A stretch of DNA of 64,000 nucleotides. Origin: an archaeon. GTDB taxonomy: Archaea; Nanobdellota; Nanobdellia; Pacearchaeales; GW2011-AR1. This document shows, in pieces, positions 28,940 through 30,632 of this stretch (positions within the stretch are counted from its first letter, which is position 1; the number at the start of each line of letters is the position of its first letter). The stretch spans positions 101,297-165,296 of the forward strand of contig JAJRTJ010000003.1 of the NCBI GenBank assembly GCA_024278335.1, written 5' to 3'. The notes beneath the pieces were generated by a model. That model was not told the origin of the DNA, did not search any database, and saw nothing but the letters and a program-made list of their open reading frames with translations. The position numbers were made by a program, and so were the translations under genes.

Positions 28940-28972
28940 AAGGTTTTTGTACATTGTTAAGTTAAAGGGAGT
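28940..28972. repeat. Left end of insertion: 10-bp direct repeat AAGGTTTTTG (28940-28949) plus 21-bp inverted repeat (28952-28972)
   Basis: CATTGTTAAGTTAAAGGGAGT matches the reverse complement of 30601-30621 at 20/21 positions. Confidence 0.8.
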
Positions 28973-28996
28973 TTTTTAGGAGAAAAAAATTAAGAA

Positions 28997-29830
28997 TTAT
29001 GAAAATTCTACTGAAGAAGAATAAACTTTCTCAAATTCTTCTTTAAATTCTTTCTTTATTTGTTCAATTAATTTATATTTTTCTGCTATTTCTTTTTGTT
29101 TAATCAAATCATATTCTCCATTTTTATTAACGGGAATCTTTATTTTTATCTTTTCAATGTGGGTTTTCTTTAATCTTTTATTACCTTCTCCTACTGAGTG
29201 GTTTGGGAGTTCGTTATCTAAAAGATATTTTAGAAACTCGTAATCTAATTTATCCTTTACTTCTTTTTTGAGTGTTAGTAATCCACAATGGCAGGTTAAA
29301 CTAAATTTTCCTTTTCTATAAAACACTCTTCCAGCATATCCATCAATAGTCCAAGTTAAACCTTCTTTGTCGTGGTCAAAACTATCTATTTTAGCAATAA
29401 TCCCTTTATTTTTAGTTTGTCCAGAATAAACTGGAAATTGTCCTTTATGTGTAGAAAAATATCTATGATTATATTTTGCAGACCCTAAATGTATATCAAA
29501 TATATCTGGTATTAACACTTCTCTAAATTTTGCTTCTTTTCCTTCATTAATTGAATTTACTTCTTGCATAAATTGGTTTATATTATTTGAAACTTCATTA
29601 AGCATAGAGGAAAACTCTGAAATTTTAACTTTATTTTCTTCCTCTATAATACCAAGATTAATTTTTTCTTCTTTTTTCCAAAAATTATCAATTATCCAAT
29701 TATTTTCGGGTTTAAATTCCTCTATTGGTATTGTCTTACATCTTTTAGAATCTGTTTTAAAAGATTCTTTTGCTCCTTTGAATTGATTAAACAAATCAAC
29801 TGCCTCACTTAAATCGTTATTTTCAGGCAT
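28997..29830 (-). CDS. Type I restriction-modification specificity (HsdS)-like protein with a single target-recognition domain
   Basis: FPVYSGQTKNKGIIAKI, LTWTIDGYAGRVFYRKGKFSLTCHCGLL and C-terminal coiled-coil IKQKEIAEKYKLIEQIKKEF match the HsdS TRD plus conserved-region pattern. No hsdM or hsdR nearby. Confidence 0.65.
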   Translation of the reverse strand: MPENNDLSEAVDLFNQFKGAKESFKTDSKRCKTIPIEEFKPENNWIIDNFWKKEEKINLGIIEEENKVKISEFSSMLNEVSNNINQFMQEVNSINEGKEAKFREVLIPDIFDIHLGSAKYNHRYFSTHKGQFPVYSGQTKNKGIIAKIDSFDHDKEGLTWTIDGYAGRVFYRKGKFSLTCHCGLLTLKKEVKDKLDYEFLKYLLDNELPNHSVGEGNKRLKKTHIEKIKIKIPVNKNGEYDLIKQKEIAEKYKLIEQIKKEFKEEFEKVYSSSVEFS

Positions 29831-29864
29831 TTCAAATCTATGAATATCTAATGTTTCCCCAATA

Positions 29865-30308
29865 TTAGAAACTAAATAAGAAAAAACTGGATGTTTCTGG
29901 ACATCTGAAATATTGTTTTTCTTTGTTAATATGAGTATATTTGCTTATCATTCTTGAATATTTTACAACCCAATTATAAACAGAAACATTAGAAGAATTA
30001 TGAGGATAAAATGCTTTAAAATGTTCTTGAACTTTACGAGTTGAAACTCCTTTATAGAATAAGTCAATAGCACAGGTTATTTTCTTCGGATGGTTTCTCA
30101 TTCTGAAAAATCCATCATCTTCTACAAATCTATAAGAACATTCTTTGCATTTATATCTTTGAAGTTTGCCTCTGTTTTCCGTTTTTCTTTTGCCATCTTT
30201 CTTGATAGAATTACTTTTGCATTTAGGACAGCAAACTTTTTTAACTTTCTTTTCTTGTTTATTATTGTATTTCATTTTGACGAGTGGAATATAAAGAGGG
30301 GTGTTCAA
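29865..30308 (-). pseudogene. N-terminal Zn-ribbon plus HTH fragment of an IS6/IS1-like transposase, with no DDE domain
   Basis: CPKCKS...QRYKCKECSYRF zinc ribbon, then AIDLFYKGVSTRKVQEHF...VSVYNWVVKY HTH. The ORF ends after 147 aa without any catalytic domain. Confidence 0.6.
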
Positions 30309-30430
30309 GCACCCTTCTTCTCTTTATATTATTAGTTAATCATATATTAGTTAAGTAATACTACTATATAAACCTTTCGTTAGTTAATAATATACGATAG
30401 ATTTATATACTTGTTATTCATATATTTGTT

Positions 30431-30577
30431 ATGGGAAAAGTAAAAATAGAAGTTGAAGGTTTTGAATGTGAGAGATGTAATCACCAATGGATACCAAGAG
30501 GAAATGAAAATCCTGCTGTATGTCCTAAGTGTAAAAGTCCTTATTGGAATAGACCGAGAAAAAGAGAGAAGAAATAA
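30431..30577 (+). CDS. 48-aa zinc-ribbon protein
   Basis: MGKVKIEVEGFECERCNHQWIPRGNENPAVCPKCKSPYWNRPRKREKK (CxxC...CxxC). Divergent from the transposase fragment. Below the track size cutoff. Confidence 0.5.
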   Translation: MGKVKIEVEGFECERCNHQWIPRGNENPAVCPKCKSPYWNRPRKREKK

Positions 30578-30600
30578 TAATATATTTTTTAGTTTAAATA

Positions 30601-30632
30601 ACTCCCTCTAACTTAACAATGCAAGGTTTTTG
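30601..30632. repeat. Right end of insertion: 21-bp inverted repeat (30601-30621) plus 10-bp direct repeat AAGGTTTTTG (30623-30632)
   Basis: ACTCCCTCTAACTTAACAATG, then C, then AAGGTTTTTG. Confidence 0.8.

Follow-up and report, generated by a model that had tools for sequence, protein, structure and literature searches.

An element of 1,674 bp (28950-30623) interrupts the DNA upstream of the L15e gene in the window, the 64,000-nucleotide stretch analyzed here (G000:C2:101297-165296) from a Pacearchaeales assembly of 575 kb with 32% G+C and 83% completeness. Its ends, its interior, and its relatives make it very probable that this is a dead member of a family of cargo-carrying DDE transposons found in Woesearchaeota and Pacearchaeota (DPANN), wrecked by a single deletion. 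An earlier note, made from the letters without database searches, had called the interval a transposon insertion with terminal inverted repeats (IRs) and a target duplication, and relatives elsewhere that are bounded by the same ends bear this out. The three open reading frames (ORFs) of 147, 277, and 48 aa that it listed are all present as described.

The inverted ends are 23 bp long and identical at 21 of 23 positions. The left terminal IR TACATTGTTAAGTTAAAGGGAGT spans 28950..28972 on the plus strand, with weaker complementarity continuing to 28988, and the right terminal IR, with the reverse complement TGCATTGTTAAGTTAGAGGGAGT, spans 30601..30623 on the minus strand; a repeat finder extends the arms to 37 nt at 84% identity (28952-28988 and 30585-30621). 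In the window, the left side reads AAGGTTTTTG-TA-CATTGTTAAGTTAAAGGGAGT (28940-28972) and the right side reads ACTCCCTCTAACTTAACAATG-C-AAGGTTTTTG (30601-30632). As the earlier note had counted, CATTGTTAAGTTAAAGGGAGT (28952-28972) matches its complement at 30601-30621 at 20 of 21 positions. Allowing up to 3 mismatches, this 21-mer occurs at these two sites only within the 64-kb window, and no match was found in 100 dinucleotide-preserving shuffles of the window.

The direct repeat AAGGTTTTTG flanks the element at 28940-28949 and 30623-30632. It is perfect, as reported before, but the target duplication is 9 bp long rather than 10 bp. When the ends are read as 5′-TA...CA-3′ (28950 and 30623), the uneven spacer (2 nt left, 1 nt right) vanishes, and on the pattern of the family the tenth matching A belongs to the element itself, as its terminal base, because 25 of 31 IR-bounded relatives show perfect 9/9 duplications beside T(G/A)-YATTGT ends. 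With its length set by this pattern, the duplication AGGTTTTTG occupies 28941..28949 on the left and 30624..30632 on the right.

A sister element of 4,675 bp lies on the same contig as the window (G000:C2:58510-63184; L007:3511-8185). It matches the transposase fragment, the intergenic region, and the zinc (Zn)-ribbon gene of the window copy at 74 to 79% nucleotide identity and has the same end layout (TGCATTGTTACCTTAAAGGTTGG and TGCATTGTTACCTTAGCGGTTGG), with a 9-bp flanking duplication, CTAATATCT. Its ends belong to another subtype, the two end sets agreeing at about 17 of 23 positions. The sister transposase is intact (315 aa), matching DDE_Tnp_IS240 (PF13610) with 38.3 bits against a gathering cutoff of 27 and, as its best NCBIfam match, the IS6 model with 69.9 bits against a cutoff of 125. 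Besides a 59-aa Zn-ribbon gene, it carries an N6_N4 methylase, an MjaI-type endonuclease, an HSDR_N-like 243-aa protein, and ORFs of 132 and 87 aa. Full-length copies with a DDE transposase, which the earlier note had suggested looking for along with further copies of the ends, are therefore present in the same genome as well as in many relatives, and the end motif CATTGTTAAGTTARMGGGAG has at least 120 exact matches in metagenome contigs.

Gene remnants and the deletion junction

Two gene remnants meet on the minus strand of the element. One is a transposase fragment at 29865..30275, delimited by profile and alignment, which comprises a Zn ribbon and a helix-turn-helix (HTH) in ∼120 homologous residues, followed by 16 out-of-frame codons from the second remnant. 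The longest ORF through it (147 aa) runs to 30308 from a TTG start and scores above curated cutoffs only for N-terminal zinc-binding domains, of the IS1/IS1595 type (NF050000; 39.3 bits against 28) and of the IS256 type (29.6 against 27), with weaker matches to IS1 and IS6 transposase models. The fragment is 72% identical to residues 3 to 117 of the genome's 315-aa transposase and retains all conserved residues of the DNA-binding part. Neither profile scans nor alignment to intact transposases revealed a DDE domain in the 147-aa ORF, in agreement with the earlier description of a transposase reduced to its Zn-ribbon and HTH parts.

The other remnant, at 28997..29944 on the minus strand, is the 3′ part of a type IIG nuclease-methylase-specificity (RM-S) gene, with 315 open codons and a stop. 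The 277-aa ORF called within it (28997-29830) has an internal ATG as its start, and upstream of this ATG the frame stays open back to 29944. This ORF had been listed as HsdS-like. Judged by alignment, it is instead the 3′ portion (∼315 codons) of a type IIG RM-S gene of ∼850 aa and neither an intact HsdS-like cargo gene nor an orphan HsdS, because the whole 315-residue frame is colinear with the C termini of fused 850- and 874-aa enzymes. It contains the C-terminal tail of a methylase, a linker, and one target-recognition domain (TRD). Residues 3 to 87 of the 277-aa ORF match the tail (635 to 719) of a relative's 726-aa methylase (42%, E 7e-20), residues 110 to 275 match TRD2 of the adjacent 366-aa S subunit (40%, E 3e-34), and the Pfam assignment is Methylase_S (PF01420, E 5e-19). 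The 315 residues align with residues 540 to 850 of an intact 850-aa ORF with N6_Mtase, Eco57I, and Methylase_S domains (73% amino acid and 77.7% nucleotide identity) and with the C-terminal ∼311 residues of an open frame of 874 aa in the relative G182 (38% identity). The assembled genome (83% complete) yielded no N6_Mtase domain, and the RM-S remnant is its sole Methylase_S match. By their domain content, the remnants are unable to transpose themselves, to restrict, or to methylate.

The 850-aa RM-S gene (L222:4054-6603) lies on a contig labelled Elusimicrobia (JACRDL010000033.1), where only its last 201 codons are called; the gene was either transferred between domains or sits on a mis-binned contig, and its annotation is in error as well. 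A second 5′-truncated copy of the methylase tail and TRD was seen in a Logan contig from SRR26113683 (L221:179-970; 71% amino acid identity), with a different breakpoint and unrelated upstream sequence, which points to an independent truncation.

Along the minus strand, the transposase homology runs to 29939 (its final 40 nt are 95% identical to the sister copy), and the RM-S homology begins at 29932 (86% over 63 nt). Since one homology ends where the other begins, one deletion of ∼2.2 kb explains the truncation of both transposase and cargo at the level of sequence. The junction itself is placed at 29933..29938 (minus strand), 6 nt that are ambiguous between the two homologies, and this hexamer would be compatible with a microhomology-mediated deletion. 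At the protein level, the likeness to intact transposases persists up to and including "...VVKYSRMISKYT" and is lost ∼17 residues short of the first acidic DDE motif (QIDEMEY); in matching position, the DNA homology of every relative begins at element position ∼970 to 1009. Past the junction, the transposase frame reads through the 16 codons of RM-S sequence before its stop at 29865; relative to it, the RM-S frame is offset by +1.

The parent was most likely an element of ∼3.9 kb, arranged as IR, Zn-ribbon gene, transposase followed by a co-directional ∼850-aa type IIG RM-S gene, and IR. The same co-directional order of transposase and type IIG gene fills the 3,883-bp element L043. The deletion joined transposase codon ∼120 to RM-S codon ∼540 out of frame, removing the whole DDE domain together with the nuclease and methylase domains of the RM-S protein; the loss from such a parent would amount to ∼190 codons of the transposase and ∼535 of the RM-S gene, with a short spacer between them. 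The type IIG proteins of L031 and L043, the two nearest elements with the same IRs or the same layout, were rejected as the parent's cargo, the 277-aa ORF being only weakly alike. Also rejected was a fusion of the transposase fragment with the RM-S frame by programmed frameshifting: this would need a +1 shift and not the −1 shift of the IS1 type, and no homologue has such a fusion.

Two other parts of the element are intact. A 48-aa Zn-ribbon gene (CxxC...CxxC, SPYW, basic tail) lies at 30431..30577 on the plus strand, divergent from the transposase. The earlier note had recorded it simply as an ORF; with homologues at the same position in nine loci (L007, L009, L028, L030, L031, L163, L199, L200, and L205), it can now be described as a conserved accessory gene of the family. 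Between the two genes, the control region (30276..30430) is conserved as DNA in the sister element (L007:5749-5906) and in relatives, including distant elements. Directly next to the transposase start it has an imperfect palindrome of ∼40 nt, AATATAAAGAG...GGGTG-N6-CACCC...CTCTTTATATT. It also holds TTAGTTAA repeats and is likely an operator or divergent promoter.

Order of insertion and deletion

A copy of the family inserted upstream of L15e, duplicating AGGTTTTTG, and we propose that the deletion most likely took place there afterwards. Decay in place is the reading that we think probable, with distinctly less assurance than the identification of the element itself. The earlier note had offered two alternatives, degeneration after insertion and mobilization in trans as a nonautonomous cargo transposon. 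The single deletion junction establishes degeneration; as to whether it preceded or followed the insertion, the data lean toward decay in place.

Several points weigh against this account. Which came first, the insertion or the deletion, cannot be observed directly, and the reconstructed empty site has no exact match in metagenome or genome collections. The parent element was not found either: in the fetched loci, matches cover only the right ∼700 bp of the window element and do not exceed 80% identity, and the closest RM-S gene lies in the Elusimicrobia-labelled contig without surrounding transposon ends. The genome is only 83% complete. The family, moreover, does make nonautonomous derivatives with perfect duplications, namely, a miniature inverted-repeat transposable element (MITE; L077) and the element L080. 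Finally, no stop codon interrupts either fragment (315 and ∼136 codons, at a genomic G+C content of 32%), and therefore either the deletion is recent relative to the divergence from the sampled relatives or the fragments are under selection. The dN/dS of the transposase fragment against relatives (0.08 to 0.34) resembles that of intact pairs (0.07 to 0.31), a weak test given that dS is saturated.

The strongest competitor, which we nevertheless regard as unlikely, reverses the order: the deletion came first, and a full-length transposase of the family then acted in trans to bring the 1.67-kb derivative to this site. The ends would permit this, being intact (21/23) and flanked by a perfect duplication, and the genome carries a full-length family transposase. 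The MITE and the cargo element that lacks a transposase, both flanked by perfect 9-bp duplications, likewise make such movement possible in principle. A MITE-like derivative would be expected in several copies at different sites, however, and here the structure fits but there is one copy, with no other copy of the same junction in the genome. No fetched locus matches the left half of the element. In a word-seeded search of the 147-aa ORF against 5.8 billion proteins, only transposase N termini were recovered, none with the chimeric tail; the best match was 78% identical over the transposase part only.

The resident transposase also appears ill suited to these ends. Its clade pairs with ...ACC...GGTTGG ends, while the window element has ...AAG...GGGAG. 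In 7 of 7 elements with ...GGTTGG ends, the resident intact copy among them, the transposase is of an "IKW-KRKT" type, and all elements ending in ...GGGAG or GGGAC have "KK(R/D/N)G-R-T" types, including the window fragment ("KKDGKRKT"). The co-varying stretch of the transposase lies just after the first CxxC, and the co-varying part of the ends is the inner half of the IR, which suggests that end recognition coevolves with the DNA-binding domain of the transposase. Because the end subtypes co-vary with this domain, the resident 315-aa enzyme is probably not cognate to the ends of the element.

A further explanation, that the remnants have been kept because they are useful, has little probability in our view, and our estimate for it overlaps those for decay in place and for mobilization after the deletion. 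The 147-aa product might act as an InsA-like repressor, the tail and TRD as an alternative specificity module, or both. The open frames, the preserved DNA-binding residues with dN/dS as in intact pairs, the intact Zn-ribbon gene and control region, and the independently truncated RM-S tail of L221 would fit such a role. Against it, the assembly provides no methylase partner, the 277-aa ORF starts at its internal ATG without an evident promoter of its own, no conserved homologue has the same architecture, and saturation of dS leaves the selection test with low power. N-terminal and C-terminal transposase fragments are about equally frequent across the order, as random decay predicts, which favors random decay over the selective retention of InsA-like pieces.

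The reading of the IRs and direct repeat as products of chance or local rearrangement, to which an AT-rich genome with 15 occurrences of AAGGTTTTTG might lend itself, was rejected as having a negligible probability, since the shuffles contain no 21-mer match, the ends recur in metagenomes and, in other genomes, delimit dozens of elements that have 9-bp duplications, and the interior is homologous to those elements.

A cargo-carrying transposon family in DPANN archaea

The family transposase was found in 104 of the 301 sampled genomes of the order, usually in 1 to 4 copies, and the named host records are Woesearchaeota, Pacearchaeota, or Nanoarchaeota metagenome-assembled genomes. We scanned all fetched loci for inverted T(G/A)YATTGT(T/A)A ends with at least 20 of 26 identical positions and obtained 31 pairs, 221 bp to 8,342 bp apart. 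The flanking duplication is perfect (9/9) in 25 of these and 8/9 in one. The 25 perfect sites (loci L007 to L205) display a symmetric target preference, TTN-(C...9 bp...G)-NAA, with T at −3 and at −2 in 17 sites each and A at +2 in 14 and at +3 in 19; the window site, TTA-AGGTTTTTG-AAA, fits the TTN-N9-NAA consensus.

In more than 20 relatives, as in the sister element, one IR pair with its duplication encloses a transposase and unrelated cargo, and the window copy has this unit-transposon layout in the form of remnants of both. The transposases of the relatives are single uninterrupted ORFs of 302 to 324 aa. By our own count, about half of the bounded elements carry restriction-modification (R-M) cargo. 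It includes type II methylases accompanied by nucleases of the MjaI, HNH, or Mrr type, type IIG enzymes in single-chain form (796 to 1,072 aa), and a complete type I HsdM/HsdS/HsdR set in L200. A PD-(D/E)XK nuclease accompanied by an EVE-domain protein was also seen, and elsewhere the cargo consists of membrane, secreted, or metabolic genes. Among the reduced members, the MITE (L077:798-1018) measures 221 bp, and the 1,763-bp element without a transposase (L080:28-1790) carries an isochorismatase-family gene and a 307-aa ORF lacking a Pfam match; both have perfect duplications, as do L114, L129, and L149, whose transposases are split or partial.

Most elements have a gene for a 46- to 60-aa Zn-ribbon protein divergent from the transposase. 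At the same position, L043 (7754-7897) encodes a 47-aa protein that looks ribbon-helix-helix (RHH)/CopG-like by sequence, and this replacement suggests a regulatory role for the small divergent gene. The family layout would accordingly comprise a transposase, usually the divergent small Zn-ribbon gene, and variable cargo between the ends. From this anatomy and the biology of DDE transposases, we infer that the ∼310-aa enzyme, with an N-terminal Zn ribbon and HTH and an IS6/IS240-type DDE domain, recognizes the ∼23-bp terminal IRs starting 5′-T(G/A)-YATTGT and inserts through a 9-bp staggered cut, preferring TTN-N9-NAA.

The family resembles the insertion sequence (IS) family IS6 (IS26, IS257, IS240, and archaeal clades including the Zn-finger clade h) in its transposase with HTH and DDE domains, its short terminal IRs, and its single transposase ORF. 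The PF13610 scores of full-length members (38.3 bits against 27) exceed the cutoff; their best NCBIfam match is the IS6 equivalog, at 69.9 and 78.9 bits, below its cutoff of 125. An N-terminal Zn finger is known in some IS6 clades (PMC7986276). IS6 elements, however, generate 8-bp duplications and measure 700 to 890 bp, or up to ∼1.7 kb in long clades, and only ISDsp3 is reported with a passenger gene (PMC7986276). The present family differs in its 9-bp duplication (25 of 31 relatives), in ends that start T(G/A)-YATTGT where those of IS6 start GG, in its length of 1.7 to 8.3 kb with cargo inside one end pair, and in its conserved divergent Zn-ribbon gene.

The N-terminal Zn-ribbon and HTH module, with NF050000 above cutoff, recalls the InsA/InsAB′ proteins of IS1, and a truncated N-terminal product would resemble the InsA repressor. 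IS1 also shares ∼23-bp inverted repeats and a 9-bp duplication. In contrast to IS1, the family scores only 36.7 to 40.1 bits against a cutoff of 100 with the equivalog NF033558, its transposase is a single ORF without a frameshift, its end sequences are unrelated, and it carries cargo. The earlier note had left an IS6/IS1 assignment uncertain on grounds of duplication length and size. The 9 bp found here falls within the 8 to 9 bp that it quoted, and the extra length is explained by cargo.

Units in which R-M genes lie within terminal IRs and a short duplication have been described in bacteria, with no archaeal case surviving the screen (Furuta et al. 2010, PMC2853133), and passenger-carrying ISs ("tIS") are recognized in several families (PMC7986276). 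The elements reported here share this design but have archaeal (DPANN) hosts and a transposase of their own, and their chassis carries type I, type II, type IIG, and non-defense cargo. The window remnant is itself colinear with the tail and TRD of 850- to 874-aa N6_Mtase/Eco57I/Methylase_S proteins of the type IIG or Eco57I-like kind, of which only the last ∼37% survives, the nuclease and methylase domains being gone. It differs from a type I HsdS in having one TRD behind a methylase tail, whereas HsdS usually has two TRDs and is a separate protein that acts together with HsdM and HsdR.

The family is a more interesting result than the relic. It may be undescribed, and it is marked by its IS6-like DDE domain, T(G/A)-YATTGT ends, 9-bp duplication at TTN-N9-NAA, divergent Zn-ribbon (or RHH) gene, and co-varying end subtypes. 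The available part of a 2026 survey of archaeal ISs (PMC13343696) contains no description of such a family, and a literature search on "ISMhu11" found nothing. We tentatively suggest, short of holding it probable, that this is an undescribed IS or transposon family or subfamily specific to DPANN and a major vehicle of R-M and other cargo, the Zn-ribbon/HTH fragment of the window copy possibly acting as an InsA-like inhibitor. If so, the window copy is one of many relics. The family's combination of an IS6-type catalytic domain with an IS1-type Zn/HTH module and a 9-bp duplication blurs the boundary between IS6 and IS1. DPANN archaea have tiny, host-dependent genomes, and gene exchange among them is little understood. 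One transposon chassis in about a third of the order's genomes, moving type I, II, and IIG R-M systems and metabolic genes and leaving MITEs and relics behind, offers a testable vehicle of defense-gene flow. The locus itself matters mainly for annotation, as its "HsdS" and "transposase" calls are gene fragments.

Flanks of the insertion

The element lies between the L15e promoter and tRNA-Ile, as the earlier note had placed it and as Pfam and Rfam matches confirm. On its left side, it is adjoined by the core promoter and start of L15e. The real start of this gene is the ATG at 28906, because the Pfam match, which begins at residue 19 of the longest L15e ORF, and an upstream TATA-like box both point there. 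The insertion point is 35 to 44 bp upstream of this ATG, just outside the TATA-like box. As read from the sequence, the TTTTTAAA box is still present between the insertion point and the gene, and the L15e core promoter is therefore probably intact after the insertion. The longest L15e ORF (205 aa) has an apparent ATG at 28954, inside the left IR, so that automatic annotation may over-extend L15e into the transposon end.

To the right of the element, Rfam detects an intron-bearing tRNA-Ile(GAU) at 30771-30880 on the minus strand, which ARAGORN missed. A direct repeat of 41 nt with 93% identity (30634-30674 and 30756-30796) is also found on this side. Its first copy is directly to the right of the transposon, and the second spans the 3′ end of the tRNA and 15 nt of trailer; the 81 bp separating the copies are G+C-rich for this genome. 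The repeat resembles an att-type scar left by an earlier integration event at this tRNA; the transposon would then have landed beside it later.

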